A DNA stretch of 64,000 bases from Candidatus Sumerlaeota bacterium (GTDB lineage: Bacteria > Bacillota > SLNR01), in assembly GCA_040766585.1 (NCBI GenBank), contig JAXGQE010000008.1, positions 28,500 to 92,499 on the forward strand, read 5' to 3'. Made by a program: the position numbers and the translations under genes. Position 1 is the first letter of the stretch; every line of letters starts with the position of its first letter. The notes beneath the pieces were generated by a model. The model worked only from the letters and a program-made list of their open reading frames with translations. It searched no databases and was not told the DNA's origin. Of the stretch, positions 25,214 to 43,593 are shown piece after piece.

Positions 25214-26410
25214 ATGATCAGCAATCCTCGAATCGTTCAGGCGGATTCTCTGGACGATGCCATGAGAGAAATTGCAGCCGTAGGAGCATGCGGCGCCGGC
25301 GTACGCGCTATGGCGGACAAAGCCAGATATTTGCTTATCCGACTGGATCATGTTTCGCCCATCGCAGCCAATATTATGAAGCAGGAAATGCTTTCAAAGG
25401 GCGGAGAAGCGGCAGTCAGCAAAGGAGCTGTGGATCTATCGGTCAAATACTCTTCGGTCCTGCTGATGGGCACAGTGAAGCAATACAAGATGCTGATCAG
25501 CAAACTGAAGCTGCAGCAGTTTAAACTGCCTGCAATTGCCAAAGAGATTGAAGATCTTCTCTCTCATGTGGAGAAGAAACGCGCAGGTGAATCCGACCGG
25601 CTTCCCTTTGAATGGGGAAAGAGAACATACATTATGGGAATCCTCAATGTAACTCCGGATTCTTTTTCAGACGGAGGACTCTACAACGATCCGGAAGCCG
25701 CTGCAAAGCGAGCGGTGGAAATGGAAGAAGAAGGTGCGGATATCATCGATATCGGTGCAGAATCAACCCGCCCGGGGTTTCGGAAAATATCCAAGGAAGA
25801 AGAAGCTGACCGTCTCTTCCCGGTTCTGGAAAAAGTGCTGCAGAATGTGAGCATTCCTGTGTCCGTCGACACCACCACGGTGGAGATAGCCCGGGAAGCC
25901 ATTTCCATGGGGGCATCCTGGATTAACGATGTTTCCGGTCCGGATCTGAAACCGGAAATGACATCTTTAGCTGCTGAATCCGGTGTTCCCATCATATTGA
26001 TGCACAACCGCAAAGAAGCAGTCTATCAGGATCTTCTGGGTGAAGTAATCTTCGATATCCGCAAAAGCGTTGAGAAAGCCCTGCAGTCCGGAGTTGAAGA
26101 AACACAGATCATTATAGATCCCGGGATTGGTTTCGGAAAGACCGCAGAACACAACCTGATCATACTCAAGAATCTTCGGCAAATCACTACTCTGGGGTTT
26201 CCGGTATTGGTGGGAACTTCCAGGAAGTCATTTATCGGCAAGGTTCTGGATACCACACCCTATGACCGCCTGGAAGGTACAGCGGCTACTGTGGCTGCAT
26301 GCATTGACCGAGGGGCAGATATTATCCGGGTTCATGATGTGGTTCAAATGAGGCGGGTCGCCCAGATGATGGACCGGATTCTGCGAGCAGGAGATGATTC
26401 CAATGAATGA
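25214..26410 (+). CDS. folP: Dihydropteroate synthase with about 130-aa N-terminal extension
   Basis: MGILNVTPDSFSDGG, DPGIGFGK, SRKSF, IRVHD. Confidence 0.95.
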   Translation: MISNPRIVQADSLDDAMREIAAVGACGAGVRAMADKARYLLIRLDHVSPIAANIMKQEMLSKGGEAAVSKGAVDLSVKYSSVLLMGTVKQYKMLISKLKLQQFKLPAIAKEIEDLLSHVEKKRAGESDRLPFEWGKRTYIMGILNVTPDSFSDGGLYNDPEAAAKRAVEMEEEGADIIDIGAESTRPGFRKISKEEEADRLFPVLEKVLQNVSIPVSVDTTTVEIAREAISMGASWINDVSGPDLKPEMTSLAAESGVPIILMHNRKEAVYQDLLGEVIFDIRKSVEKALQSGVEETQIIIDPGIGFGKTAEHNLIILKNLRQITTLGFPVLVGTSRKSFIGKVLDTTPYDRLEGTAATVAACIDRGADIIRVHDVVQMRRVAQMMDRILRAGDDSNE

Positions 26411-26768
26411 TCGGATTCTGCTCCACGGAATGGTGTTCTTCGGATTTCATGGAGTTCATCCTGAGGAAAAGAAACTGGGCCAGCGCTTTATCGTGGATGT
26501 GGATTTGAATGTATCCCTGCAGGATGCAGGCATGACCGATGATCTGACCCGAACCGTCCATTACGGACATGTCTACAAGCTGATTAAAGAAATTGTGACC
26601 GGTCCGAGCTGTAATCTGATTGAAGCCGTCGCAGAGCGAATTGCATCGGCAGTTTTGAAGCAATACAGCGCGGTGGAGGGTATCAATGTACGGATTCGCA
26701 AACCGGAAGTACCCATTGAAGGGGTGTTGGATTTTGCCGGAGTCGAAATTGAACGGAACCGTAAGTAA
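26403..26768 (+). CDS. folB: Dihydroneopterin aldolase
   Basis: HGVHPEEKKLGQRF, HYG, LIEAVAE, KP. Confidence 0.95.
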   Translation: MNDRILLHGMVFFGFHGVHPEEKKLGQRFIVDVDLNVSLQDAGMTDDLTRTVHYGHVYKLIKEIVTGPSCNLIEAVAERIASAVLKQYSAVEGINVRIRKPEVPIEGVLDFAGVEIERNRK

Positions 26769-29149: not shown

Positions 29150-30113
29150 GGGGATTACGGATGTTCCGGGGATCTCTGTGGGGCATGTTACGGATGCAGC
29201 TGGGATGACCGGATGTACTGTGGTGTTGGTACCCGGGGAAGGGGCGGTAGCCGGTGTGGACGTACGTGGGTCTGCCCCGGGAACACGGGAAACGGATTTG
29301 CTGAAACCCATGAATCTGGTGCAAAGAGTCCATGCAGTGATCTTATGCGGAGGGAGTGCCTTCGGACTGGATGCTGCTGCAGGAGTAATGAAATTCCTTG
29401 AAGAAAAGAACATCGGATACGATACCGGCGCAGCCAAAGTCCCCATTGTTCCGGCAGCGGTACTGTACGATCTGGCCGTGGGAGATGCCAAAGCGCGTCC
29501 TACGGCAGAAATGGGATACCTGGCTTGTCTTTCTGCCAATACTGGGAGAGTACCGGAAGGGAATTGTGGAGCCGGAGCAGGGGCTACGGTAGCCAAGCAC
29601 CTGGGAATGGACCACGCTGTCAAAGGTGGAGTCGGGACCCATAGTGTCCGCTTGGACAATGGTGTTGTGATTGGTGCGATTGCTGCTGTAAATGCATACG
29701 GGGATATTCTGGACTGGAAAACCGGCGAAACGATAGCGGCGCCAAGAAATGCCGGGACCGATGGCTTCACCAGCACAATGGATTTACTGAAAGGATGCTC
29801 GGAGGCTCCTTCTGTCTTTCCGGCAAACACCACTTTGGCAGTTGTGGCCACCAATGCAAAGCTGACTAAAGAAATGGCCAACAAAGTCGCTCAGGTAGCC
29901 CACAACGGATTGGCTCGCGCGATTAACCCGGTACACACATTGGTTGACGGAGATGCGGTATTTGCCGTGTCGGTGGGGGAGTTGGAATGCGATCCCGTCG
30001 TCGTAGGAGCCGTTGCTGCCGAAGTCGTGGCAGAATCCATCAAGCGAGCAGTTTTGCAAGCGAAAAGCATCGGACATATATTGGCGGTTCAGGATCTGAA
30101 CCGCAACAGGTGA
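29142..30113 (+). CDS. P1/S58 (DmpA-like) family peptidase
   Basis: ITDVPG, GSAPGTRET, GGSAFGL, NTTL, DGDAVF. Confidence 0.9.
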   Translation: MIKGITDVPGISVGHVTDAAGMTGCTVVLVPGEGAVAGVDVRGSAPGTRETDLLKPMNLVQRVHAVILCGGSAFGLDAAAGVMKFLEEKNIGYDTGAAKVPIVPAAVLYDLAVGDAKARPTAEMGYLACLSANTGRVPEGNCGAGAGATVAKHLGMDHAVKGGVGTHSVRLDNGVVIGAIAAVNAYGDILDWKTGETIAAPRNAGTDGFTSTMDLLKGCSEAPSVFPANTTLAVVATNAKLTKEMANKVAQVAHNGLARAINPVHTLVDGDAVFAVSVGELECDPVVVGAVAAEVVAESIKRAVLQAKSIGHILAVQDLNRNR

Positions 30114-30294
30114 AGCAGGAACTTGTGATGGAGTCCTGACTGTTGGGCCAATTAACGATGAAGACTCGTCCGGTATCGACAAAGAACTGGAACGGAGGTG
30201 CGGCCATTTAGATTGTGCAAAGAATGCCGGTCGATCCTGACCGTTAAGGGTACTTTGCATTTATTTTTTTCACTCTGACAAGCGAGGTGCAAAA

Positions 30295-31083
30295 ATGATT
30301 TTTGTCATGGATGTGGGGAATACCAATATCGTGCTGGGTGTATACAAAGAAGATGAGCTGGTGGCTCACTGGAGATTGTCCACCAACCGACAGGCAACGG
30401 CCGATGAGTACGGCATGACGATCCAGAACCTTTTCTCCTTTCATGGACTGGATTCCAAAGAAATTCACGCGGTGATTATTTCATCCGTCGTACCGCCTTT
30501 GATCGACAGCCTGGAAAAAATGACGAGACAATATTTCCACATTGAGCCGGTCATTGTGGGACCGGGCATCAAAACAGGAATCCGCATTATGTACGATAAC
30601 CCGAAAGAAGTGGGGGCAGACCGAATTGTCAATGCGGTGGCCGCCTACGAGCAATACGGTGGACCATTGATTGTGGTTGACTTTGGCACGGCCACCACCT
30701 TCTGTGCCATTACCAAACAAGGGGATTATCTGGGAGGAGCCATCGTTCCAGGTATTGGCATCTCAATGGAAGCTCTGTTCCAAAGAGCCGCCAAACTGCC
30801 CCGGATCGAACTGGTAAAGCCCAAGACCGTCATTGGAAAAAACACGGTTTCCAGCATGCAGTCCGGGATCATATTCGGGTACGCAGGGCTGGTGGACAAA
30901 ATGGTGAATCGTATTAAGGAAGAAATGAATTCCCAGGCCTATGTGGTGGCCACCGGAGGCCTTTCCGAACTCATAAGTTCCGAGGCAGCTACCATCGATA
31001 CGGTCAATCCGTTTCTGACCCTGGAAGGGCTTCTGATTCTGTACAAGAAAAATGCCATCCATGAAAACTCCACCGACAAATAG
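30295..31083 (+). CDS. coaX: Type III pantothenate kinase
   Basis: DVGNTN, GADR, DFGTATT, GG...PG, ATGG. Confidence 0.95.
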
Positions 31084-31110
31084 ATGAGTTGGTAAAAGGC
31101 AGGTGCAACA

Positions 31111-32328
31111 TTGAGAACGAGCGGTGAGCGACTCAAGCAAATGATCCTTGAGCTGGGCAGCATCGGCAAGACAGCGGAGGGCGGTGTGACCCGGCGCGCA
31201 TTCACAAATGAAGATATCCAGGGGCGGAATTACATCAGCACCCATCTCCAGGAACTGGGCTGCTCAATTCGAGTGGATGCTGCCGGCAATCTGATCGGGC
31301 GATGGCCGGGTACGGACGAAACCCTACCCGCCATTGTGGCAGGATCCCATACCGATACCGTACCCAACGGAGGGCTTTTTGACGGAACCATCGGTGTACT
31401 TAGCGGCATAGAGTGTATCCGTACACTCCAGGAGAATGGAATCAGACTGAAGCACCCCTTTGAGATCATCTCCTTTTCAGCTGAAGAAGGCAGTGCTTTG
31501 GGCGGAACATTCGGGAGCCGGGCCATGGCCGGGCAGATCCACCTGGATGCCTTAACCGATCAGCAGCGCCTGATCATGAATGGAAATCTTCAGGCCTTCG
31601 GATTGGATCTGGACAACCTCTACTCCGCCAAAAGGAACCCGAAAACCATGAAAGCATTTTTGGAAGTGCATGTGGAGCAAGGCGGGATATTGGAACAAAA
31701 AAACGTTCCCATTGGGATTGTCTATGGTATAGTCGGAATCTATCGGTATGAAGTTATCATCCAGGGTGAAGCCAACCATTCGGGATCGACGCCCATGGAT
31801 AAACGGGATGATGCCCTGGTGAAAGCAGCCAAGATTATCCTAGCTGTCCAGGATTATGTCCGGGAAGAAAGTGCAGACATGGTGGGCACCGTGGGCTCTA
31901 TTCAGGTTAAGCCCAATGCCATCAACGTGATCCCCGGGGAAGTCCGGATGACGGTGGAATTCAGAGATATCAATGCGTGGGATCCGATACTTGTCTATGA
32001 GCGTCTCCGACATTTTTCCGAAACCCTAGGCGGGGTTTCTTTCAAAAAAATTGTGGAAAAGGAACCGGTTCGCCTCCATCCCGGAATCCAGCAGAAAATT
32101 AAGGAAGCCTGCGAGAAATATGATATTGAATACAACATCATGCCCAGTGCAGCCGGACATGACGCGGTGGCCATGTCGTACCTGACTCCCACGGCCATGA
32201 TCTTCGTGCCCAGCCATGGGGGAATCAGTCACTCTCCCGACGAATGGACCGACTGGGATGATATTACCCATGGAGCGGATGTGCTGCTTCAGACCATTGT
32301 AAGCATTGATCAGGATCCACAGGAATAG
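31111..32328 (+). CDS. M20 Zn hydrolase, N-carbamoyl-L-amino-acid amidohydrolase / allantoate amidohydrolase family
   Basis: GSHTD, DG, EEG, EVHVEQG, NHSG, GHDA, SHSPDE. Confidence 0.9.
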   Translation: MRTSGERLKQMILELGSIGKTAEGGVTRRAFTNEDIQGRNYISTHLQELGCSIRVDAAGNLIGRWPGTDETLPAIVAGSHTDTVPNGGLFDGTIGVLSGIECIRTLQENGIRLKHPFEIISFSAEEGSALGGTFGSRAMAGQIHLDALTDQQRLIMNGNLQAFGLDLDNLYSAKRNPKTMKAFLEVHVEQGGILEQKNVPIGIVYGIVGIYRYEVIIQGEANHSGSTPMDKRDDALVKAAKIILAVQDYVREESADMVGTVGSIQVKPNAINVIPGEVRMTVEFRDINAWDPILVYERLRHFSETLGGVSFKKIVEKEPVRLHPGIQQKIKEACEKYDIEYNIMPSAAGHDAVAMSYLTPTAMIFVPSHGGISHSPDEWTDWDDITHGADVLLQTIVSIDQDPQE

Positions 32329-32377
32329 GGCAGCAGATTGGGGCTGACCACGCATCTTCATATACATGAACCCATCA

Positions 32378-32408
32378 AGGGGGAGGCCGTAGGGCCTGCC
32401 CTCTTTTT
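32378..32408 (+). terminator. Intrinsic terminator
   Basis: GGGAGGCC-GTAG-GGCCTGCCC + T-run. Confidence 0.55.
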
Positions 32409-32480
32409 CTTCCGTGAAGGAAATTTCTTAGTTCTGAAGAAAATGGATGATAGATTGATCAGAAGAGGGGCGGGATTGGC

Positions 32481-33911
32481 ATGATGGACCTTGTGATTCA
32501 AGGCGGGTTGATTGTCACTGCAGCAAAATCATACCGCGGCAGTATCGGAATTCGCAATGGCAAGATTGACACCATTGTCTCACCAGACACAAAGCTTCCA
32601 GGAAAAAAGGTGGTTTCAGCAGACGGCCTGATGGTCATGCCGGGGTTAATTGATATGCATGTCCATTTTCTGTCGCCGTTTATGGGTCAGATGGGAGCGG
32701 CTGATTTTTACAGCGGAACGGTGGCGGCAGCTGTCGGTGGTGTAACAACCATCCTGGACTTTACCAATACAGCCATCGGGCAGTCCATGCTTGACTCCGT
32801 TCGGGAAAAGGATGACCAGGCCCGGAGTCGGGCTGTAATTGACTACTCGTTCCACCCCCGCATTGTGGAAGCGCCCACTCGGATTATTGATGAGATCAAA
32901 CATTTGGTTGAATACGGAGTACCAACATTTAAGATGTTCATGACCTATCGAAAACAGGGTGTGCAAGCTCATGATGGGATACTGCTCAAGGTTCTTGAAG
33001 AAGCACGCCGATGGAATGCTCTGCCGGGAGTCCATGCAGAAAACAATGACATTGTGGAGTCATTCATTGATGACGCAGTCGCTGCCGGAAGAACGGACTG
33101 GCATGCTCATGCCCGCACCCGGCCGCCGATTTCCGAAGAAGAAGCCATTCACCGGGCCATCTATTTTGCCAAAAGAGTGAATTGCCCCATATTTATCTAT
33201 CACGTGTCCACCCAAGGGGGTATGGAAGCCATTGCTCAGGCTCAGAAGGAAGGACATCCTGTCTACGCTGAGACTTGCTCTCACTATCTGTCTCTGACAG
33301 AAGACATGTTGAAGCGGGATGATGGCTACAAGTACATATGCAGCCCCCCATTGCGCAGTGCAGAGCATGTGGAGGCCATGTGGGATGGATTGAGCCGGGG
33401 GGTTTTGTCGGTAACGGGTTCCGATGACTGCAACTATTCTGCCGATGCAAAGAAAGCCCCACTCCAGACCGACCGGGAGGGGAACCTGGTTCCGGAATTC
33501 CATAAAGTGGTCAATGGTTTAACCGGCATGGAAAGCCGCTTCGATGTACTGGTATCGTATGGTGTCAATGGGGGAACATTGACCTGGAATGATCTCGTTC
33601 GGGTAACCAGCTACAATGCAGCCCGCCTATTCGGCTTGTATCCGCAAAAGGGAGATATTCAGATTGGTTTCGATGCGGATCTGATCCTGGTGGACCCCGA
33701 GAAGGAAAAAATATCGACTTACGATCAGCTGCATCTGGATACCCAATACAATCCCTGGGAAGGCATGAAGTCAAAAGGCTCTGTGGTTTCCACCTATGTC
33801 CGAGGCGAGGCGGTCATTGAGAATGGGCAGGTAACAGCACAAGCGGGAACTGGAAAATTTGTGCATAGAAAATTGGATCCGGCTTACTTGCGAAGCTTCC
33901 AAAGGCTTTAA
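32481..33911 (+). CDS. Dihydropyrimidinase / D-hydantoinase family cyclic amidohydrolase
   Basis: PGLIDMHVH, GGVTT, FKMFMTY, VHAEN, YHVS, CSPPLR, GSDD. Confidence 0.9.
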   Translation: MMDLVIQGGLIVTAAKSYRGSIGIRNGKIDTIVSPDTKLPGKKVVSADGLMVMPGLIDMHVHFLSPFMGQMGAADFYSGTVAAAVGGVTTILDFTNTAIGQSMLDSVREKDDQARSRAVIDYSFHPRIVEAPTRIIDEIKHLVEYGVPTFKMFMTYRKQGVQAHDGILLKVLEEARRWNALPGVHAENNDIVESFIDDAVAAGRTDWHAHARTRPPISEEEAIHRAIYFAKRVNCPIFIYHVSTQGGMEAIAQAQKEGHPVYAETCSHYLSLTEDMLKRDDGYKYICSPPLRSAEHVEAMWDGLSRGVLSVTGSDDCNYSADAKKAPLQTDREGNLVPEFHKVVNGLTGMESRFDVLVSYGVNGGTLTWNDLVRVTSYNAARLFGLYPQKGDIQIGFDADLILVDPEKEKISTYDQLHLDTQYNPWEGMKSKGSVVSTYVRGEAVIENGQVTAQAGTGKFVHRKLDPAYLRSFQRL

Positions 33912-34030
33912 CAAAGGGGAAAGCCTGCGCCGGATCGATTCTCTTCGGTGCCGCAGCAATCCGGGGAGATATTTCAGTTCCAAGTTATAATCTTGAGTAT
34001 CCTTATCTTGAGTATCTAAGGAGGGCTACG

Positions 34031-34777
34031 ATGAGAATCAAAATCATCAATCCCAATACCACGTGGGAAATGACTCATTCCATTCAAGAGTCTGCCGTTG
34101 GAGCTGCCCGGAGCAGCACTGAGATTGTGGCTGTCAGCCCCGCTGCAGGCCCCGTTTCCATTGAAAGCTATTACGATGAACAGCTGGCCATTGTGGGGGT
34201 TTTGGAAGAGGTTCTGCTGGGTGAAAAGGATTCATACGACGCATACATTATTGCGTGTTTCGGAGATCCGGGTTTGTATGCTGCACGAGAGATTACATCA
34301 GCCCCGGTGATCGGGATTGCTGAGGCTGCCATGCTGACTGCCTGTATGCTGGCTCCCAAATTCTCAGTTCTTACTGTACTGGCTCGATCTCAGATGATTA
34401 CTGAAGAGCTGATCCGGAAATATGGCTTGTGGGAAAGATGCGCTTCTTTGCGTTCGACCGGGTTGTCCGTTCTGGATTTTGAAAACGATCCGGCAACGGG
34501 TATCCGGGAGCTGAAACGGGCCGGTGAGATAGCGGTTCGTGAAGATGGGGCTGAAGCACTGCTGCTTGGGTGTGCCGGCATGGCCGGGCTGGAGGATGAG
34601 TTGGAAAACACACTGAAAGTACCCGTCATCAATGGAGTGGCGGCTGCAGTAAAAATGGCGGAGAGTCTTTTTGACCTGGGGAAAAAGACCAGCAAAGTAA
34701 AGACATTCTCTCGACCGGAGCCCAAAACCATCGTCGGGTACGAAAATATTTTTCAGCTTCAAAAACGGGAGGAATGA
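34031..34777 (+). CDS. Hydantoin/allantoin racemase (Asp/Glu racemase family)
   Basis: INPNT, IACFGDPG, LGCAGM two-Cys motifs. Confidence 0.92.
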   Translation: MRIKIINPNTTWEMTHSIQESAVGAARSSTEIVAVSPAAGPVSIESYYDEQLAIVGVLEEVLLGEKDSYDAYIIACFGDPGLYAAREITSAPVIGIAEAAMLTACMLAPKFSVLTVLARSQMITEELIRKYGLWERCASLRSTGLSVLDFENDPATGIRELKRAGEIAVREDGAEALLLGCAGMAGLEDELENTLKVPVINGVAAAVKMAESLFDLGKKTSKVKTFSRPEPKTIVGYENIFQLQKREE

Positions 34778-35166
34778 TCATGGAGATCGAAATTCTGGCA
34801 GGGGAGTATGCTGTCTGCCAGATTCCCAAAGGCCAAAGCATGGCACCTCCCAAAGATCGTGGCGGATTCTGGTCGGTTACCGAAACCGATGAGGAGGTTT
34901 CCCTGATCTGCCGTGTCGATAGAATCCCGGAAACTCTGCAGAAAGAGACAGGATGGTGTGTCACTCGTATCCGCGGCGTGCTGGATTTTTCACTGGTAGG
35001 GGTGCTTTTGAAAGTCATTCAGCCCTTGGCAGACCGGGGAATCAGCATATTTACCGTATCAACTTACAATACGGACTACATCCTTTTGAAGGAAGAATGT
35101 TTGGAGGAAGCCGTGCAGGCTTGGAATGAACAAGGATATCATGTCAGGAGGGAAAGCCATGATTAA
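34774..35166 (+). CDS. ACT-domain protein (CASTOR/ACT_7-like)
   Basis: SVTETDEEVSL, LDFSLVGV, ISIFTVSTYNTDYIL. Confidence 0.85.
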   Translation: MIMEIEILAGEYAVCQIPKGQSMAPPKDRGGFWSVTETDEEVSLICRVDRIPETLQKETGWCVTRIRGVLDFSLVGVLLKVIQPLADRGISIFTVSTYNTDYILLKEECLEEAVQAWNEQGYHVRRESHD

Positions 35167-35776
35167 TGTAGTGGATTTGGAACCTGGAATAAAAGAAATA
35201 CAATTGTTTTCCAATGAACGGCAGTTCAGAGCTTTTGTAGTCGAAACACCGAAAGGGGCCGTGTTGATTGACACCGGTCTGCCGGATACTGCCGAAGAGC
35301 TGGTCCGTACTGTGGAGCCCATGAACATCAGCATGGTCGTTTTGACCCATTACCACCAGGATCACACAGGCGGGCTAGAAATCATGGCCGAGAAAATGCC
35401 GGACATGGAGTTTGCAGCCCATGAACTGGAGGCCGAGAAAATCAAAGTACCCATGACCCGGCTGCTGAAAGACGGGGATCTGGTGGCGGATACGCTGCGG
35501 GTAATTCATATTCCCGGGCATACCGCCGGCAACATGGCTCTGTACCATGAAAAGAACAAGACCATACTGGCCGGAGACAGTGTATTCGGAGCCGGGGGTT
35601 ATGACAAAATATTGATCTCTCCACCGGCTGTCTATTCAGAGGACGTCAAACTGGCCAGACAGAATATAGCCAGGATGCTGAAGTATCCATTTGAAAAAGC
35701 ATTCTTGTCCCACGGGGCCCATTTGCTGGAGGATGCACAAGGGCAGATCGAAGCACTGCTTGGGGAAGAGGCGTAA
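35159..35776 (+). CDS. Metallo-beta-lactamase fold hydrolase
   Basis: IDTG, THYHQDHTGG, PGHT, GD, SHG. Confidence 0.9.
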   Translation: MINVVDLEPGIKEIQLFSNERQFRAFVVETPKGAVLIDTGLPDTAEELVRTVEPMNISMVVLTHYHQDHTGGLEIMAEKMPDMEFAAHELEAEKIKVPMTRLLKDGDLVADTLRVIHIPGHTAGNMALYHEKNKTILAGDSVFGAGGYDKILISPPAVYSEDVKLARQNIARMLKYPFEKAFLSHGAHLLEDAQGQIEALLGEEA

Positions 35777-35799
35777 CGTGCTTTCAGAACGGCATAGAG

Positions 35800-35838
35800 A
35801 AAAGAGGGGAGTTGCGGTAAAAAAGGGTCCCCTCTTTT
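35800..35838. terminator. Bidirectional terminator between convergent genes
   Basis: AAAAGAGGGGA...TCCCCTCTTTT. Confidence 0.55.
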
Positions 35839-35903
35839 TGTTTGGGTCCGGTTCATATTGGAATCGTTTCAACATCGTTCAGGGTAAATTATGGTATAAT
35901 AAA

Positions 35904-36161
35904 CTAGCAGTCAAAAGACACAAAAGACGCTTTAACTCCTTCCAGCTGGTTCAGCTCGGCATGAAGCGTTTTCGCAGAAGATCCATCTTCATCGCACATA
36001 TGGAGAATGATGATTCCGTCTTCTCCGCAAAAGTCCTTGCGTGCTTCATGAAAACCGACCCGGGTTTTGATGTAACAACCAAACTCAGTCAGCAGTGCCT
36101 GGACTTCAGCCGCATGGGTAGTTCTCTGGTCAACGCGAATAGCCATGATGATACAATCCAT
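35904..36161 (-). CDS. Small ACT/ferredoxin-fold protein resembling TM1266 (iron-only hydrogenase system regulator-like)
   Basis: R...VQ.LLT.FGC.IKTR.G.H pattern; ATG after GGAGGG. Confidence 0.6.
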   Translation of the reverse strand: MDCIIMAIRVDQRTTHAAEVQALLTEFGCYIKTRVGFHEARKDFCGEDGIIILHMCDEDGSSAKTLHAELNQLEGVKASFVSFDC

Positions 36162-36254
36162 AACGATCCCTCCTGTAATATTCATTCTGATGAGTCATTT
36201 CGTCAAAAGAATGAGAAATCCTTTGCTTGAATATTTTCCTTGGAGGTGGGCTGT

Positions 36255-37100
36255 ATGAATCAAAACGAACATCTGAAGGAACGAATCATCGAATTCCTGA
36301 CGATGCGGGGAGCGGATTTGGTTGGTTTTGCTTCCGTATCACGCTGGGACGAATGGGATGAAGTTCGTCCAGAATTTCGCCCGGGCAGGTTGTTCCCCCA
36401 GGCAAAATCCGTCATAGTTTTTGGCATGGGGATGCCGCTTCCCGTGGTTGAGACAACGCCATCATCCATCCATATGGAGCTGTACAATACGGTCAACCGG
36501 GAACTGGATGGGTTGGCCTATCATCTTACCCGTTTTTTGGGCAGGAATGGGTCGGCAGCCTACTCCTTTCCCAGGGATGGATACGGACATATCCGCATTA
36601 TCAAGGAGAAACCGCGCGCAGCCTTTTCCCATGTGTATGCGGCCAAGTATGCCGGCCTGGGGTCCATTGGCATGAACAATGTGCTGCTGACCCCGGAATT
36701 CGGGCCCAGGGTACGGTGGGTATCTGTGTTTACCGATCAGGACCTGTCCGGCAAGGACGTCATGACCTCAGAACTGTGTATCCGCTGCCAGGCCTGTGTT
36801 CGCTGCTGTCCTGTGGATGCTCTGTCCCCCAGAAATGACCGCACAAAACCGGATTTTGATTCGTTAAAATGTGCGCAGCGGGCTGAGGACCTGACACGCA
36901 GACGGAGTTATCCCTGCGGGATCTGTATTAAAGTCTGCCCGGTGGGAGAAGATCGCAAACTGTACCAAGCTGAGCGAAAAATGGCCTTGTATCTGAATGA
37001 AGAGAATGCGGATTCAAAAGAGAATCCTGAATATCAAATCTGGAACCACTACCGACAGTGGGGAAGCTGGACAGAGGAGGAGATCAAAAAAAATGAGTAG
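36255..37100 (+). CDS. Epoxyqueuosine-reductase-like (QueG/reductive dehalogenase superfamily) 2x[4Fe-4S] protein
   Basis: GADLVG, AGLGSIG.N..LTPEFGPRVR, CxxCxxCxxxCP and CGICIKVCP. Confidence 0.75.
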   Translation: MNQNEHLKERIIEFLTMRGADLVGFASVSRWDEWDEVRPEFRPGRLFPQAKSVIVFGMGMPLPVVETTPSSIHMELYNTVNRELDGLAYHLTRFLGRNGSAAYSFPRDGYGHIRIIKEKPRAAFSHVYAAKYAGLGSIGMNNVLLTPEFGPRVRWVSVFTDQDLSGKDVMTSELCIRCQACVRCCPVDALSPRNDRTKPDFDSLKCAQRAEDLTRRRSYPCGICIKVCPVGEDRKLYQAERKMALYLNEENADSKENPEYQIWNHYRQWGSWTEEEIKKNE

Positions 37101-37827
37101 TATTTCCATGAAAGAGTATTTGGAAGCAGTCAAAGAAATAAGCAGCAGCACCATGGATCAAGATGAGAAGATCCACAAAGTTATGAGTTGGAAGGAAAAG
37201 CTAATGAGCAATGATGAGTTGCTCATAGATTTGCTCACCCAATCTGCCGTGATAGAGGAGCCGGAACAATTTCTGCCTCAGGATATCAACGGATTCAGTC
37301 TGTACAGAGATCCGGACAAAGACTTTTCCATGCATGTTTTCGTGTGGGCACCGCATGTTCCCTATCCCATCCATGACCATGGATCCTGGGGAATCGTCGG
37401 GCTGTACCGCGGACACATTGAAGAAACCAAGTATCGGTGGCTGGGTGCGGAAGATCATCGGGTGATGCTGGAACCAAAAACACCCAAGAAGTATAAAAAG
37501 GGGGAAGTATTCTACGTTCTCCCGCTGGATGAAGGGCCGCACAGCATGCGATCATTGGGCAGCCAGACTTCCATCAGTATACACACCTACGGCCGGCCGA
37601 TTCGCAAAAGCATGCTGCGTCTGTTCCATCCAGCGTTTGATGAAAAAGGAAAGTACTCCTTCTATTATACCTATCCGCTCTATGTGTATCGGCGGATGCT
37701 GGCGCTGGATGCTCTCAGTGCTATCAGCGAAGATGCCGGAATGGATCTGGAAAAACATCTGATGGAGAAATCCGGGAACAAAGTCCTGGTAGCCGCTTTG
37801 CGCGACAAGAGAGAAGAGGACCGATAA
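37093..37827 (+). CDS. Cysteine-dioxygenase-family cupin (thiol dioxygenase-like)
   Basis: PIHDHGSWG, PHSM and SIHTYG (3-His + Ser-His-Tyr pattern). Confidence 0.75.
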   Translation: MSSISMKEYLEAVKEISSSTMDQDEKIHKVMSWKEKLMSNDELLIDLLTQSAVIEEPEQFLPQDINGFSLYRDPDKDFSMHVFVWAPHVPYPIHDHGSWGIVGLYRGHIEETKYRWLGAEDHRVMLEPKTPKKYKKGEVFYVLPLDEGPHSMRSLGSQTSISIHTYGRPIRKSMLRLFHPAFDEKGKYSFYYTYPLYVYRRMLALDALSAISEDAGMDLEKHLMEKSGNKVLVAALRDKREEDR

Positions 37828-37851
37828 CAGTCCAATCAAAGTCAAAGGGGG

Positions 37852-40704
37852 ATGACCATGCTGGTACCGCTCCACAATCCGAGAAAAGGAAAACTACGGG
37901 TTTTGGGTTTTGCCTCGGGATCGGGCAACACATTATGGAAAATATTGGAATTACAGCAAGAGTTGGAAAAAACCTTCGAAGGATCACCTTTCGAAGTCGT
38001 GGGGGTTTTTTCGGACAATCCGGATTCCAAAGCCGTGGAAACGGCTCAAAAGTATAATTTCCCCCATGTCAGCAAAGACCTGCGCCAGTTTCACAAGGAT
38101 CACAATGCGCCTTTGAAAGACCGCAGTGTCCGGGCTGCGTTTGACCGGGAAGTTATCCAGCTGATTGAACCCTTCCAGCCCGATGTCATTTTGCTGGCCG
38201 GGTATGTCTGGGCGACGACAGACATCATCGTCGATACGTACCGGGTGGTGAACATCCATCCGGCGGATCTTTCTGTGGAAGAAGACGGTCATCGTCTTTT
38301 TGCCGGAGCCCATGGAATCCGGGATGCTTTGGATGCTGACGTGGATACTCTTCACTCTTCTGCCCACGTGGCCACCAAGAAACTGGATGGCGGCCCGCTG
38401 CTGATGATATCCCCCGGGGTTCCTGTGGACAAAGAGCTGGGACTGAAGGGGAATGACGGGGAAAGACACTATCTCAGCGCAGTCAACAAGCAGTCCAGAG
38501 CCCTGGCTGCCCGAACCATCTACGAAATTGCCACTGGTGCTTTCAGTGAAGATGAAGAGGGCAGTATCTATTATCACGGAGAAAAGGTTCCCCATGGAAT
38601 ACGACTGGAAAGTTGGGAAACACGCGTCCCAAAGTATAAAAGGGACATGGCAGCCTTTGTCCGGCCGCAGAGTATTGCCGTCATTGGGGCTTCTTCCCGA
38701 GGCGGTATCGGACACGCCATTGTCCATAACCTGGTTCAAGGGGGATTCAAGGGGCAGCTGTTTGCAGTCAACCGTCGGGGCGAAGAAGTCCTGGGGGTTG
38801 CCGGGTATGCCTCTGCGGCCGATATACCGCAGCCGGTGGACATGGCTGTGATCGCTGTTCCGTCATCCGGTGTACTGGCCACGGCGAAAGAATGCGGCCA
38901 GGCGGGAGTAAAAGCCATTGTCTGTATATCCGCAGGATTCAGGGAAACGGGTGAAGACGGGAAAGCGCGGGAAAAAGAACTTCTGGATATTGTGGATCAA
39001 TACAATATGAGACTGCTGGGGCCAAACTGTATGGGTATTGCCAATACCGACCCGGACAGTCTGCTCTATGCCAATATTCTTCAGGGAATTCCGCCGCGGG
39101 GTGGGATCGGTTTCATTACCCAAAGCGGGGCGCTGGGAGCCGCCATGGTTGATTTTGCTTCATCCATGGGTATCGGATTTTCCATCATTGCGTCCTTGGG
39201 TAACCAGGCTGATGCAACATGCAGCGACCTGCTGCCTCTGTTGGCGGACGATCAGCAGACCAAAGTAATACTGCTTTATCTGGAGGAAATTACAGAACCT
39301 GCTCGTTTCGTTCATATCGTCAGCCGCATCACAGAAAAGAAACCGGTAATCATTATGAAAGCAGGCAGAACTTCCGCCGGCGCCCAGGCGGCATCTTCCC
39401 ATACCGGCAGCCTGGCTGGAAATGATCAGGTGGCGGATGCCCTTCTGGCTCAAAGCGGGGCTATTCGCGTGAAGACCCTCAATGAGGCATTTCTTCTGGC
39501 GGATGCCCTGAGCAAAATGCCCCCTGTCCAGGGAAAACGAGTGGCCGTGGTAACCAATGCCGGCGGCCCCGGGATATTGGTTGCGGATATGCTCAATGAA
39601 CAGGGATTCGAACTGCCGCTTCTTGACTCGGAGACCCGGAGCACTCTTGCCGGGAGCCTTCTTCCCGAAGCGTCCACCGGCAATCCGGTGGATCTGGTGG
39701 CCCCCGCTTTGCCGGAGCAGTATTCCATAGCCGTAAAAACTGCGGCAGAGAGCCATCTCTATGATGCCCTGCTGCTAATTTGTGTTCCTCCCGCCACCAT
39801 CGACACGGGAAAGGTGGCCGAATCCGTCATCCATGAACTGAAGCAAATCGATGTTCCCGTACTGACTTGTTTCTTTGGACCGACACTGGGAGCAGCAGGC
39901 CGAAAAGTGATGATTGAAGCCGGGATTCCTTCCTTTGTATACCCGGAAGAGACGGCCAGCATTCTGGCCATGATGAAGATGGATCAGAATACAGTGGATA
40001 GGCAGTCCCAAAGGAACCGTCTGGAAAAATCGAAAGTGGCGGAAATGAGAGCATTCCTAGCAGATACTCATTCCGGGGAGTATCTTCCGGAAGAGAGCAG
40101 CCGAAGATTGCTGCAGGAGTTTGGATTTGATTTGGCCCAGACGGCTACCCTGCAAAATTCTAACGAGATTTCGGAACGAGTGCACAAATACCCTGTGGTA
40201 GCAAAGATCAATCATCCGCAGATCATTCACAAAACCGATGTAGGGGGAGTGGTCCTGAACATTGGCTCCGGTGAAGAACTGAAAGAGGTTATGGATGAAA
40301 TGCTTGCCAAGTTCCCCGGGGCGAACGGTGTTACCGTCCAGGAACAGATACCTGCCGGCTTGGAAGTGATTATCGGGGCGGTGAAAGATCCGTCGCTGGG
40401 CCACGGTATCATGGTGGGACTGGGGGGTACCCATGTGGAAATATCTCGAGACATTTCATTCGGATATGCTCCTGTCAGCCCGATGCAGGCTGCGGCGATG
40501 ATGGAAAAACTCACCGGTTACCCGCTGCTGAAAGGCTATCGGGGAAGTCAGGGGGTCAATATTGAAAAGCTGGCCGATTTAATCTCGCGTCTCAGTTGGG
40601 TTTTGATGGAGATTCCTCAAATCACGGAGATGGATCTGAATCCTCTGATCTACGATGCCGCAAGCGACCGTTTTGTCACAGTAGACTGCCGAATCCGTTT
40701 TTAA
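37852..40704 (+). CDS. Fusion: PurN-like formyltransferase domain + ADP-forming acyl-CoA synthetase (CoA-binding, ligase, ATP-grasp)
   Basis: N-term FASGSGN, LLAGY, NIHP, LDGGP; C-term IAVIGAS, LGPNC, QSG, SHTG, TNAGGPG, NPVD, HKTDVGGV, DLNP. Confidence 0.85.
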   Translation: MTMLVPLHNPRKGKLRVLGFASGSGNTLWKILELQQELEKTFEGSPFEVVGVFSDNPDSKAVETAQKYNFPHVSKDLRQFHKDHNAPLKDRSVRAAFDREVIQLIEPFQPDVILLAGYVWATTDIIVDTYRVVNIHPADLSVEEDGHRLFAGAHGIRDALDADVDTLHSSAHVATKKLDGGPLLMISPGVPVDKELGLKGNDGERHYLSAVNKQSRALAARTIYEIATGAFSEDEEGSIYYHGEKVPHGIRLESWETRVPKYKRDMAAFVRPQSIAVIGASSRGGIGHAIVHNLVQGGFKGQLFAVNRRGEEVLGVAGYASAADIPQPVDMAVIAVPSSGVLATAKECGQAGVKAIVCISAGFRETGEDGKAREKELLDIVDQYNMRLLGPNCMGIANTDPDSLLYANILQGIPPRGGIGFITQSGALGAAMVDFASSMGIGFSIIASLGNQADATCSDLLPLLADDQQTKVILLYLEEITEPARFVHIVSRITEKKPVIIMKAGRTSAGAQAASSHTGSLAGNDQVADALLAQSGAIRVKTLNEAFLLADALSKMPPVQGKRVAVVTNAGGPGILVADMLNEQGFELPLLDSETRSTLAGSLLPEASTGNPVDLVAPALPEQYSIAVKTAAESHLYDALLLICVPPATIDTGKVAESVIHELKQIDVPVLTCFFGPTLGAAGRKVMIEAGIPSFVYPEETASILAMMKMDQNTVDRQSQRNRLEKSKVAEMRAFLADTHSGEYLPEESSRRLLQEFGFDLAQTATLQNSNEISERVHKYPVVAKINHPQIIHKTDVGGVVLNIGSGEELKEVMDEMLAKFPGANGVTVQEQIPAGLEVIIGAVKDPSLGHGIMVGLGGTHVEISRDISFGYAPVSPMQAAAMMEKLTGYPLLKGYRGSQGVNIEKLADLISRLSWVLMEIPQITEMDLNPLIYDAASDRFVTVDCRIRF

Positions 40705-40769
40705 AGGTGAAGCAGGGATCTACCGGTTACCAGAGAATTATGATTTCTATGAAGATTTAGAAAGGAGCG

Positions 40770-42221
40770 ATGAATTTGTCTGCTGGAAAGAAAACAATGA
40801 TTAAGGGTGGTTGGATCATTGCATTCAATGGAAAAGAGCACGCTTTGCTGAAAAACGGGGTTATTGTCATTGAAGGAAACTCTGTGATCCATGTGGGCAA
40901 GGATTATGCCCAGCCGGTGGATAAAGTGGTGGATGCTTCCTCGCATGTGATTTCTCCAGGATTCGTCAGCGTTCATGCTCATATGATGAACAGCCCGATG
41001 AACAAAAGCTTCTTTGAAGACACGGGAAGCCGGCAGTTTGGGATGAGTGCGCTCTATGATTACGGAGCCATTGACAGCGCTGCAACCGAAGATGATTTTC
41101 GTCTGTGCGGTGAGTTTTCAGCGGCTGAAATGATCAAAACCGGCATGACCACGGTTGTTGAACTGAACAGACAGAATGCGGACATTGCTCACAAAATTAT
41201 TGGAGAAAGCGGTCTGAGAGGGTATGTCGTTCCCGCTTTCAAATCGGGATCCTGGTACACTCCGGACGGGAAAAAGGTGCACTACAAATGGAATGAAGAA
41301 GCCGGGATGAAAAGCCTGGAATATGCTGTTGATTTCATCGACAAAGTGAAGGGTACATACGATGGCAGGATCAGTTCAATGCTGAGTCCCTACCAGATCG
41401 ATACGGTGACTCCCGAACTGTTTGCAGCAGCCAAAGAATACGCTGAAAAACTAGGGGTCAGACTGCAGGTTCATGCCGCCCAGTCTCTGGTAGAGTTTAG
41501 AGAGATCATGGAACGTTACGGAATGACTCCCATTGAATGGCTTCACGAACTGGGCATTCTAAATGAAAATTTGATCATAGGCCACTGCATTTTTATCAGC
41601 GGTCACAGCTCTGTGGCGTATCCGGGAGACAGAGATCTTGAGCTTTTGGCGGAAGCAAAAGCGTATGTGGCACACTGCCCGTGGGTATTTGCCCGCAGAT
41701 CCATCATCCTGGAGTCATTGTCCAAGTATCTGAAGATGGGCATTCCGGTGGCCATGGGAACCGATACTTTCCCCCAGGATTTGCTGAACGAAATGAGAAT
41801 TGCAGCCGTTGCCTCGAAAATTCACGATCAGGATACAGCGACGGCCACGGCCAGACAGGTATTTGATGCGGCAACGCTGACCGGTGCAAAAGCTCTCAAT
41901 CGGGATGACATCGGGCGGATTGCCAAAGGAGCCAAGGCGGATCTGGTCTTCTTCAAAACAGATACACTGAGGATGTCGCCTCTGAGAGATCCCATCAAGA
42001 ACATAGTTTTCAATGCAAACGGCCAGGACGTGGACAAAGTCATGGTGGACGGGAAGTTCCTTGTTGAAGACGGGAAACTGCTCCACATGGATGAAGAGAA
42101 GATTGCGAAAGATTTTCAGAAGATGCTGGAACGATTGTGGCCTCAAGCCGAAAAATATGACCGGGCGGGCCGGTCCATGGAAGAACTATCACCCATGTCC
42201 ATCCCTGAGTGGAGCGAATAG
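40770..42221 (+). CDS. Amidohydrolase (chlorohydrolase/nucleoside-deaminase-like family)
   Basis: PGFVSVHAH, VHAAQ, GHC, HCP, MGTD, GAKADLV. Confidence 0.85.
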   Translation: MNLSAGKKTMIKGGWIIAFNGKEHALLKNGVIVIEGNSVIHVGKDYAQPVDKVVDASSHVISPGFVSVHAHMMNSPMNKSFFEDTGSRQFGMSALYDYGAIDSAATEDDFRLCGEFSAAEMIKTGMTTVVELNRQNADIAHKIIGESGLRGYVVPAFKSGSWYTPDGKKVHYKWNEEAGMKSLEYAVDFIDKVKGTYDGRISSMLSPYQIDTVTPELFAAAKEYAEKLGVRLQVHAAQSLVEFREIMERYGMTPIEWLHELGILNENLIIGHCIFISGHSSVAYPGDRDLELLAEAKAYVAHCPWVFARRSIILESLSKYLKMGIPVAMGTDTFPQDLLNEMRIAAVASKIHDQDTATATARQVFDAATLTGAKALNRDDIGRIAKGAKADLVFFKTDTLRMSPLRDPIKNIVFNANGQDVDKVMVDGKFLVEDGKLLHMDEEKIAKDFQKMLERLWPQAEKYDRAGRSMEELSPMSIPEWSE

Positions 42222-42339
42222 CACTGTCTGACAGACCGGTCGTATCAGGGAGAGATCGTGGGGATCCCAATGGATGTCAGGGAGCTGTCAAAGGCTGTGC
42301 TGAATCCAATTACGCAATGGAGAGAGGAGCGTTGAAACC

Positions 42340-42528
42340 ATGAAAGCACGAGTGAATCAAGATGACTGCATTGGCTGCGGAGCGTGTGCAGGAACCTGCC
42401 CCGAGGTATTCCGTCTGGGGGAAAGCGGAAAAAGCGAAGTGTATGTAGATGAAATTAAAGGCGAATGGGAAGACGGAGTCCGAGCTGCTGCCGACGGCTG
42501 CCCCATGGGAGCCATCAGCATCGAATAG
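42340..42528 (+). CDS. Single-cluster ferredoxin
   Basis: CIGCGACAGTCP...CPMGAI; RBS GAGGAG. Confidence 0.9.
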   Translation: MKARVNQDDCIGCGACAGTCPEVFRLGESGKSEVYVDEIKGEWEDGVRAAADGCPMGAISIE

Positions 42529-42621
42529 GTTGAATCCAAAAGAAAGCTTCTGCTCATGCAGAAGCTTTTTCTATTTGATTATGATACAATGAACAGAGAT
42601 TGCACCGAAAGGGGATTCTTG

Positions 42622-43593
42622 ATGAAAATCGGAACTGTGGTTTTGGACAATCCATTGATCATGGCTCCTCTGGCTGGAGTAACCGATTACCCATTCAGGC
42701 AAATCGTAAAAGAATTCGGAGCTGCCCTGGTGTACACAGAAATGATCAGCGCCCAGGGCCTTCTTCACCATAATCGTCAGACACAGCGGATACTGGATAT
42801 TTCAGCCAAAGAAAAACCCACAGCAGTGCAGTTGTTTGGAAAAGAGCCGACTGTTCTTGCTCAAGCAGCTGCAATGGCGGTGGAACGCGGCGCAGACATC
42901 ATTGATGTCAATATGGGCTGTCCAGTGCCAAAGATCGTAAAGAATCAAGAAGGCTCATACCTGATGAAAACCCCGGATCGGGTACGGCGAATCATTGCAG
43001 AATTGGTAAACACCGTTTCAGTGCCTGTCACGGTGAAGATTCGTAAAGGATGGGATCCGGATCATGTCAATACGGTGGAAATTGCCCAGATATGCGAAAA
43101 AGAAGGTGCATCAGCAGTGGCCGTTCATGCCAGGACCCGGGATCAGTACTACGCCGGTAAGGCGGACTGGGATTGCATCGCCCGAGTGAAAGACGCCCTG
43201 CAGATCCCTGTGATTGGCAATGGAGATATCAATGATCCGGAGGATATTCTGAAAATGATTAATCAGACCGGGTGCGATGCGGTGATGATTGGACGTGCCG
43301 CCATGGGCAACCCCTGGATCTTCTCACGAGGGAAGGCCTATCTGGAAACCGGGATCGTACCCCCTCCGCCTTCTGTGTACGGAAAGATTGCCACAGCCAT
43401 TGTGCATTTGCACAACCTGGTTAATTACAAAGGGGAAAGCACCGGCGTCAAAGAGATGAGAAAACATGCTTCCTGGTATATCAAAGGGCTGAAAGGATCT
43501 ACTGAGATCCGGGTAAAAATCAATCGAGCCATGACACTGGCGGAGATGGAGTCTATTCTTTTGGAGTACGGTGAACATCTGGTTCGCCAATGA
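42622..43593 (+). CDS. dusB: tRNA dihydrouridine synthase
   Basis: APLAG, NMGCP, VTVKIR, VHART, GNGD, MIGR. Confidence 0.93.
   Translation: MKIGTVVLDNPLIMAPLAGVTDYPFRQIVKEFGAALVYTEMISAQGLLHHNRQTQRILDISAKEKPTAVQLFGKEPTVLAQAAAMAVERGADIIDVNMGCPVPKIVKNQEGSYLMKTPDRVRRIIAELVNTVSVPVTVKIRKGWDPDHVNTVEIAQICEKEGASAVAVHARTRDQYYAGKADWDCIARVKDALQIPVIGNGDINDPEDILKMINQTGCDAVMIGRAAMGNPWIFSRGKAYLETGIVPPPPSVYGKIATAIVHLHNLVNYKGESTGVKEMRKHASWYIKGLKGSTEIRVKINRAMTLAEMESILLEYGEHLVRQ

Follow-up and report, generated by a model that had tools for sequence, protein, structure and literature searches.

The window analysed here, a stretch of 64,000 nucleotides on contig JAXGQE010000008.1 of a Candidatus Sumerlaeota bacterium (assembly GCA_040766585.1), carries at positions 37852..40704 (+) a gene that joins a PurN-like formyltransferase-fold domain to a complete ADP-forming acyl-CoA synthetase (ACD). 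The gene is a single open reading frame (ORF) without interruption, begins with ATG and encodes 950 amino acids. ORF listing and translation agree with a preliminary description of this DNA, and the motifs quoted there are present in the protein, i.e., ASGSGN (residues 21-26), VVNIHPADLS (132-141), LDGGP (178-182), SHTG (516-519) and HKTD (793-796).

Architecture and reality of the fusion

Residues 16-186 match Formyl_trans_N in Pfam (45.1 bits, cut-off 26.1), and downstream of them come CoA_binding_2 (PF13380, 274-398), Succ_CoA_lig (PF13607, 416-553), Ligase_CoA_2 (PF19045, 564-702) and ATP-grasp_5 (PF13549, 742-949). The last four all exceed their cut-offs, so that every ACD subdomain is present: CoA-binding, His-loop flavodoxin-like, ligase-CoA and ATP-grasp. 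The 950-residue protein reaches no equivalog cut-off in NCBIfam; the best of its ACD models scores 518.7 bits (cut-off 1300) and another 478.5 bits (cut-off 567), and the fusion lies below all cut-offs of the characterised ACD specificity groups (acetate, 3-hydroxypropionate and 4-hydroxybutyrate equivalogs).

A homologue search of a 5.8-billion-protein collection, from which the 120 best matches were listed, establishes that this architecture is widespread. Among the matches listed, lengths range from 930 to 977 residues and identities from 49 to 100%, and PF00551 occurs together with the ACD domains in 118 of the 120. More than 100 full-length fused relatives, 49-71% identical, come from independent assemblies in several phyla, and the fusion is thus not unique to this assembly. 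The named sources listed include Oscillospiraceae, Sedimentibacter, Spirochaetia, Treponema and Synergistaceae, and the fusion family is common among gut, termite, digester and sediment anaerobes. It is found in 12 species-representative genomes (loci L001-L012), among them metagenome-assembled genomes (MAGs) of a Ca. Sumerlaeota bacterium (62% identity), an Aminobacteriaceae bacterium and a Spirochaetaceae bacterium, together with a cultured strain, Lactonifactor longoviformis DSM 17459 (L007).

Logan contigs of three studies, four runs in all, cross the junction near 38600-38650, for which a check of reads had been suggested, without a single differing letter or gap. Run X1, possibly the source sample, covers 38300-38896; X4 covers 38426-38651, X6 covers 38488-38640 and 38619-38881, and X13, an RNA library, covers 38448-38670. 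An AlphaFold2 model computed from an alignment of 21 sequences is confident overall, with a mean predicted local distance difference test (pLDDT) score of 87.7 and a predicted template modelling score of 0.86; pLDDT falls below 50 only at residues 712-719 and at residues 506-516, just ahead of His517 in the swinging loop. Matches in the ESM Atlas are confined to the protein's own kind and to plain ACD clusters. Altogether, these results confirm that the fusion is real and conserved, and no assembly artefact. One relative, at L111:4387-8022, has a longer open frame of 1211 amino acids, with about 260 more residues at the N-terminus that represent either an extension or a read-through of the upstream frame.

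The PurN-like domain

Residues 1-262 (37852..38637, +) form a formyltransferase-fold domain that was delimited by Pfam and by alignment with E. coli PurN, whose C-terminal helix region also aligns with the C-terminal extension of the domain; pLDDT is mostly above 88 throughout. The SGSGN loop (residues 22-26, 37915..37929, +), which corresponds to the loop of PurN for the phosphate of glycinamide ribonucleotide (GAR), has S22, G23, S24 and G25 invariant in all 21 aligned sequences. In the NIHPAD motif (residues 134-139, 38251..38268, +), H136 and D139 are invariant in the same set. Asp179 of LDGGP (38386..38388, +), also invariant, takes the position of the catalytic residue Asp144 in the alignment with E. 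coli PurN.

Among solved structures, this domain comes closest to GAR transformylases (E. coli PurN, PDB 1c2t, E 1.7e-10), not to Fmt or formyltetrahydrofolate dehydrogenase (FDH). The PurN equivalog TIGR00639 is not reached (68.2 bits against a cut-off of 150.1). In a phmmer alignment with 1c2t, PurN Glu173, a residue that contacts the GAR ribose, aligns with Ser215, which adjoins the nearly invariant Arg216; this suggests that the acceptor is not GAR. Residues 1-265, used as a HMMER query against 1.84 billion representatives, drew 753 matches at E <= 1e-3, of which 31 had E <= 1e-30; stand-alone proteins of about 250-270 residues occur among them beside the fused ones. Among the distant relatives, six proteins are fused to 5-formyl-tetrahydrofolate (THF) cyclo-ligase and one to PurD, which argues that the lineage is folate-linked.

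The genome itself (2.36 Mb in 16 contigs, 94.7% complete) holds two further PF00551 genes: a PurN-size gene with canonical motifs (C9:247015-247569, 187 bits to PF00551) and an Fmt-size gene (C12:163170). Because a separate canonical PurN-size gene is present, the fusion does not serve the cell as GAR transformylase. Separate PurN- and Fmt-size genes also accompany the fusion in all four other fusion-bearing genomes tested, with PurN above cut-off in three. Judged from these comparisons, the N-domain is unlikely to be an ordinary PurN.

The ACD half

The ACD half follows on the + strand. Subdomain 1, the CoA-binding Rossmann fold (residues 274-398, 38671..39045), was assigned by Pfam and PDB alignment; subdomain 2, Succ_CoA_lig (416-553, 39097..39510), by Pfam, alignments and the AlphaFold2 model; subdomain 5, Ligase_CoA_2 (564-702, 39541..39957), by Pfam; and the ATP-grasp unit (742-949, 40075..40698) by Pfam and alignments. 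Residues 268-934 match the 4-hydroxybutyryl-CoA synthetase Nmar_0206 of N. maritimus (8wzu) at E 4e-130. In this alignment, His517 of SHTGS (codon 39400-39402, +), on the swinging loop, falls on the SHTG motif of Nmar_0206, while His793 of IIHKTD (codon 40228-40230, +) falls on its IIHKSD motif; both histidines are invariant in 21 of 21 family members. In Nmar_0206, the corresponding His256 and His535 carry the phosphate (PMC11494057); the structural account of that enzyme gave no acyl-pocket residues from which the specificity of the fusion could be predicted. The low pLDDT at residues 506-516 is as expected of a mobile swinging loop. Since both histidines are invariant and aligned with the Nmar_0206 motifs, the ACD half looks catalytically competent. 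It also matches Pat proteins (PDB 9it0, 261 bits) and the dimethylsulfoniopropionate (DMSP) lyase DddX (PDB 7cm9), and relatives of the fusion are labelled 'acetate--CoA ligase family protein' by their sources.

A conserved module in anaerobes

The surroundings of the N-domain were compared across 92 loci (L001-L011, L088-L167 and the window; L012, which starts inside the ACD, was left out) by clustering ORFs of at least 100 amino acids and naming the clusters by Pfam. The fusion is present in 65 of these loci, from Bacillota, Synergistota, Spirochaetota and Sumerlaeota. Where fused loci extend at least 5 kb on each side (n=30), an HMGL-like gene encoding a DRE-TIM protein of about 405 residues lies within 8 kb in 26; the other four are the window, L001, L088 and L155. 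Over all 65 fused loci, the HMGL-like gene is found in 48, a class I/II aminotransferase (PF00155) in 37, a MerR-XRE-cupin regulator in 33, an SNF transporter in 24, DctP in 16 and formyltetrahydrofolate synthetase (FHS) in five (L002, L006, L090, L105 and L114). The HMGL-like gene stands at most 300 bp from the fusion in half of the fused loci that have it (24/48). Two orders recur, one with SNF-HMGL divergent from aminotransferase-fusion-regulator, the other with a tripartite ATP-independent periplasmic (TRAP) transporter, a short-chain dehydrogenase/reductase or 2-hydroxyacid dehydrogenase, the fusion and HMGL. The TRAP solute-binding proteins gave generic DctP matches in the PDB and no ligand clue. 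The fusion and its DRE-TIM partner therefore constitute a conserved module in anaerobes, and the near-constancy of this partner points to an undescribed pathway that links one-carbon and CoA metabolism.

Four fused loci (L114 at 14421-15785, L133, L136 and L143) also hold a kynureninase equivalog (TIGR01814, 397 bits against 246). These loci are Synergistota-like or belong to other anaerobes, and the enzyme is unexpected there because kynurenine formation normally needs oxygen.

Several candidate substrates were considered and set aside. Beta-alanine or malonate semialdehyde was dropped as the aminotransferase is of class I/II, not class III, and oxalate as the loci contain no decarboxylase; glyoxylate or malyl-CoA with ATP formation was likewise considered and dropped.

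The DRE-TIM partner lacks the canonical general base

In the window's own genome, the partner is encoded on contig C9 (L087:9116-10339) and belongs to a subfamily of about 405 residues resembling isopropylmalate synthase (IPMS) and homocitrate synthase; it is 58% identical to the protein of L002. In the PDB it matches homocitrate synthase best (6ktq, E 1.2e-48), and it reaches no NCBIfam cut-off. Whichever partner type it accompanies, the protein is highly conserved (mean column identity 70%), and R40, D41, H222 and H224 do not vary among the 11 sequences aligned. Together with Q44, these residues align with R89, D90, Q93, H288 and H290 of methylthioalkylmalate synthase (MAMS). An invariant WETGMP stands where relatives have the HxxGxH motif that provides the general base: MAMS His388, the base itself, aligns with invariant Pro317, and the other histidine of the motif with invariant Trp312. 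Mutagenesis of MAMS found His388 to be required for acetyl-CoA enolisation (PMC11532901). With Pro317 in its place, canonical acetyl-CoA enolisation by the partner is unlikely. The partner thus probably binds a 2-oxoacid without carrying out the canonical acetyl-CoA Claisen condensation, and the loss of the enolising base would fit a non-enolisable acyl-CoA, e.g., formyl-CoA.

Split forms and replacement of the ACD

The PurN-like domain is also encoded as a stand-alone gene (about 250-264 amino acids) in 23 untruncated loci. In L142, a separate ACD gene of 682 codons lies 20 bp downstream of it. In L112, L123, L125 and L126, a family III CoA-transferase takes the place of the ACD while the SNF-HMGL/aminotransferase/regulator set is retained. 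In 14 of the 23 stand-alone loci, the gene adjoins an AMP-forming ligase of the benzoate-CoA-ligase family (TIGR02262, 504 bits against 375), whose best PDB match is an anthranilate-CoA ligase. These loci often carry creatininase-family, GCAxxG and aminoimidazole ribonucleotide (AIR)-synthase-like proteins, and the HMGL-like gene is also found in two of them (L160 and L164).

In a quick maximum-likelihood tree of 97 N-domains, from which rows with fewer than 230 aligned residues were left out, the fused, split and CoA-transferase forms make up one clade (74 rows, SH-aLRT 99) within which the CoA-transferase group is nested. The AMP-ligase group, a sister group, falls outside it, and the relatives fused to PurD or 5-formyl-THF cyclo-ligase sit on a long branch. 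Because the ACD is interchanged with two other types of CoA-activating enzyme, the PurN-like module is tied to CoA-thioester chemistry.

Loci L149-L166 (e.g., L164:7392-12547), from sediment and wetland metagenomes, share a recurrent cluster of a LIV-type ABC transporter, a benzoate-CoA-ligase-family enzyme, the stand-alone PurN-like protein, creatininase-family and GCAxxG proteins, an AIR-synthase-like (HypE/ThiL/SelD-like) protein and a SPOR-domain protein. This cluster may represent an aminobenzoate-type pathway.

Gene context in the window and its genome

All window genes between 22486 and 48647 are on the + strand. Their order is ftsH, folE, folP, folK, nadC, birA, an S58 peptidase gene and coaX, then a hydantoinase-type trio, an ACT_7 protein, a metallo-beta-lactamase (MBL)-fold hydrolase, a 179-aa ORF, a QueG/RdhA-like Fe-S protein, a 276-aa ORF and the fusion, with a chlorohydrolase-family amidohydrolase, dus, greA and lysS on its 3' side. 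The trio (31111..34777, +) sits between coaX and dus and is that of the classic 'hydantoinase process'. Its M20 amidase is of carbamoylase type (NF006771, 453.6 bits; cut-off 399), the second enzyme is a D-hydantoinase/dihydropyrimidinase (TIGR02033, 452 bits; cut-off 393) and the third an Asp/Glu/hydantoin racemase. Going by its co-orientation, the trio may supply an amino acid to the pathway of the fusion. Allantoin breakdown was considered for these genes and dropped: the cyclic amidase scores 452 bits against 393 as D-hydantoinase and 277 against 358 as allantoinase.

The block between trio and fusion (34774..37827, +), from the ACT_7 protein to the 276-aa ORF, is kept with L001 and L088 only. 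The 4Fe-4S protein within it (36240-37100, +) resembles QueG (TIGR00276, 44 bits) and reductive dehalogenases (40 bits), and the ORFs that flank it (35691-36230 and 36997-37827) have no Pfam or NCBIfam match. The amidohydrolase (40770..42221, +; NF004801, 422 bits against a cut-off of 416) likewise lies directly 3' of the fusion in the window, L001 and L088 alone, and the window's gene arrangement as a whole is common only to L001, from Sumerlaeota, and the metagenome locus L088. In a sample of the phylum, the N-domain occurs in three of 101 genomes, all of one order.

A promoter and terminator scan of 30000-43000 found sites no more often than in shuffled sequence (14 against 11.9, and 16 against 12.6). 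One hairpin stands out, at 42541-42570, with a 13-bp stem and a T-rich tail; it overlaps the annotated dus start (42556) and is likely to be the terminator of the upstream operon, or else dus starts further downstream.

Further features were noted in passing. The folP-like ORF (25214-26410) has Pterin_bind at residues 141-374 and an N-terminal extension of about 140 residues without a Pfam match, and a 124-aa ORF (26394-26768) lies between it and folK. On C9, a 564-aa Amidohydro_3 protein without NCBIfam match (L087:6332-8026, -) adjoins the regulator and the HMGL-like gene, with malic enzyme and pyruvate kinase genes 4-6 kb upstream.

Proposed function

A search of the full-text literature, whose coverage leaves out subscription-only papers, found no description of a PurN-ACD fusion; this supports the view that the family is uncharacterised, as had been stated of formyltransferase-ACD fusions in the preliminary description. 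Our interpretation starts from what is observed, namely the architecture, the conservation of the catalytic residues, the co-occurrence of the partner genes and the replacement of the ACD, and from these we infer every substrate as well as the direction of flux. Our best explanation, to which we give an even chance, is a bifunctional enzyme that would combine an ACD with folate-dependent formyl transfer and form the core of the conserved module. The ACD half would interconvert a small carboxylic acid, ATP and CoA with an acyl-CoA, ADP and Pi, while the PurN-like half would shift a formyl group between tetrahydrofolate and a CoA-bound species of the ACD half. The rest of the module would comprise the DRE-TIM enzyme, binding a 2-oxoacid, an aminotransferase or dehydrogenase that makes this 2-oxoacid, a transporter and a regulator.

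Within this framework, we tentatively favour, at clearly less than an even chance, a mechanism centred on formyl-CoA. The N-domain would catalyse 10-formyl-THF + CoA <-> THF + formyl-CoA and the ACD would catalyse formyl-CoA + ADP + Pi <-> formate + ATP + CoA, while the DRE-TIM partner would make or consume formyl-CoA, or another acyl-CoA, in C-C chemistry on the enolate of a 2-oxoacid. This is the simplest model that would account for the fusion itself (through a shared substrate), the FHS neighbours, the lost base of the partner and the exchange of the ACD for a family III CoA-transferase. A precedent for the first step is provided by LctF, which moves a formyl group from 10-formyl-THF to CoA in vitro (PMC11730586). 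The same reaction has been proposed for the formyltransferase N-domain of HypX, which is joined to a domain that handles CoA (PMC6802093).

Several points weigh against this formyl-CoA mechanism or against the bifunctional reading as a whole. The domains of LctF and HypX are Fmt/FDH-like, as opposed to the PurN-like domain of the fusion. The CoA-transferase that replaces the ACD scores 247 bits with CaiB and 120 bits with formyl-CoA transferase, and thus stands closer to the former, and the ligase of the sister group belongs to the benzoate/anthranilate-CoA family, not to the formate/acetate type. Asn106 of PurN corresponds to N134, which 18 of the 21 sequences retain; the other three, of Synergistaceae type, have Gly there. 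In the window's genome, the HMGL-like gene and the regulator lie away from the fusion, at the end of a contig (C9:264145-266333), and in L001 and L088 the HMGL-like gene does not adjoin the fusion either. The loci are not phylogenetically independent, and because they share ancestry the counts overstate the support. Moreover, we know of no ACD that uses formate.

The main rival to the formyl-CoA mechanism, in our estimate unlikely, is an amino-acyl-CoA N-formyltransferase. The ACD, CoA-transferase or aryl-CoA ligase would then activate an amino-bearing acid, e.g., an amino acid or anthranilate/aminobenzoate, whose amine the PurN-like domain would formylate or deformylate, as PurN does on the glycyl amine of GAR, with the phosphates of CoA replacing that of GAR. 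The invariant PurN-type phosphate loop would suit such a reaction, as would an acceptor other than GAR (Ser215/Arg216 at the position of PurN Glu173), the affinity of the sister-group ligase with benzoate- and anthranilate-CoA ligases, the amino-acid transporters and aminotransferases that dominate the loci, and the kynureninase, whose products are anthranilate and alanine. However, kynureninase occurs in only four of the 65 fused loci, the class I/II aminotransferase would strip an alpha-amino group, the universal DRE-TIM partner would be left without an obvious role, and no enzyme of this kind is known. Coupling of formyl-THF, formyl-CoA and formate had been put forward in the preliminary description, and this part of the proposal gains from the LctF precedent; the accompanying suggestion that the protein replaces Fhs fares less well. 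As a stand-alone C1 enzyme, it would catalyse formate + ATP + THF <-> 10-formyl-THF + ADP + Pi via formyl-CoA, a role for which the chemistry of LctF and HypX offers a precedent. Neither tblastn nor PF01268 found FHS in the window's genome, but at 94.7% completeness the gene may simply be unassembled, and FHS is present in all four other fusion-bearing genomes tested and adjacent to the fusion in five of the 65 fused loci. The idea is further weakened by the nested clade in which the ACD gives way to a CoA-transferase, an enzyme incapable of making ATP; this swap and the DRE-TIM, aminotransferase, transporter and regulator partners would all be left unexplained, and we hold such a substitute to be improbable. 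For the third suggestion of the preliminary description, a formylase regulated by acyl-CoA, the results speak neither for nor against.

We are similarly sceptical of a PurN-like domain that would act as a non-catalytic folate or nucleotide sensor and tune an ordinary acyl-CoA synthetase, mirroring Pat. The incomplete conservation of N134 and the low Pfam score (45 bits) would be compatible with a sensor, and Pat-type proteins (9it0) illustrate that ACD scaffolds occur in regulatory fusions. Against this, H136, D139, D179 and the phosphate loop stay unchanged among sequences of 49-71% identity, and the domain persists as a separate gene beside unrelated CoA-activating enzymes, which is typical of a catalytic pathway step. 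That the protein consists of independent halves, one a surplus GAR transformylase and the other an acetate-CoA ligase, or is an artefact of assembly or annotation, is very improbable in view of the open frame confirmed by independent assemblies and contigs, a PurN score under half its cut-off, PurN-size genes in all five genomes examined and the conserved partner context, even though relatives bear the name 'acetate--CoA ligase family protein' and the N-domain has its nearest structural matches in GAR transformylases. The pairing of ordinary PurN and acetate-CoA ligase, named in the preliminary description as an outcome that would undo its reading, is accordingly unlikely.

Formyl-CoA is seldom met in metabolism; most of what is known of it comes from the breakdown of oxalate, alpha-oxidation, HypX and a single antibiotic pathway, and natural formyl-CoA enzymes are sought for synthetic formate assimilation. 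At its most ambitious, the formyl-CoA mechanism would amount to a new route of C-C cleavage or formation in anaerobes, carried out by the fusion and its histidine-less DRE-TIM partner; we regard this as a long shot. An amino or hydroxy acid would be converted to an acyl-pyruvate-type 2-oxoacid (formylpyruvate being the simplest, with a kynurenine-derived dioxo acid in other cases), which the DRE-TIM enzyme would cleave with CoA to pyruvate and formyl-CoA or another acyl-CoA, the thioester then being harvested as ATP by the ACD half or as 10-formyl-THF by the PurN-like half. Such a route would conserve energy and C1 units in a redox-neutral manner and, if reversed, would constitute a natural formate-assimilating C-C bond formation. 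If formyl-THF, CoA thioesters and ATP are linked in this protein, it would form a new node between one-carbon and acyl-CoA metabolism, and both the IPMS-like partner and the widespread gene now labelled 'acetate--CoA ligase family protein' would gain a function. Should the formyl-CoA idea prove mistaken, the module would still be a clearly delimited, uncharacterised pathway that lends itself to experiment and has a cultured carrier.

Comparison with known systems

The N-domain shares with E. coli PurN (1c2t) the fold, the catalytic His and Asp and the phosphate-binding loop, but it has HPADLS and an eight-residue insert where PurN has HPSLLP, and the PurN-type catalytic Asn is absent from three of 21 relatives. 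The DRE-TIM partner keeps the Arg-Asp, Gln and His-x-His of the metal/2-oxoacid site found in IPMS, homocitrate synthase and MAMS and has no LeuA-type regulatory domain.

The ACD half has the subdomain order 1-2-5-(ATP-grasp) and both phospho-histidines of other ACDs, including the Korarchaeum enzyme (4xyl), to which the fusion adds an N-terminal PurN-like domain of 262 residues. Pat/PatZ proteins (ACD-like plus GNAT; 9it0) likewise join an ACD-type scaffold to a second acyl-transfer domain; in the fusion, the additional domain has a formyltransferase fold and stands at the N-terminus, both ACD histidines are retained, and Pfam finds no GNAT domain in the 950 residues, so that the protein is not of Pat type. 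DddX (7cm9), an ATP-dependent DMSP lyase, uses the ACD scaffold in the ligase direction as the first catabolic step, with further chemistry on the CoA ester. DddX performs both steps within the ACD body, whereas the fusion would place the second chemistry in a separate fused domain.

The closest functional parallels would be LctF and HypX, whose formyltransferase-fold domains act, or are proposed to act, on CoA; the fusion has this fold as well, with conserved His and Asp. Their partner domains, a polyketide synthase acyltransferase domain and a crotonase-fold decarbonylase, are unrelated to an ACD. HypX, like the fusion, is nevertheless joined to a domain that handles CoA thioesters, and this domain uses the formyl-CoA made next door.

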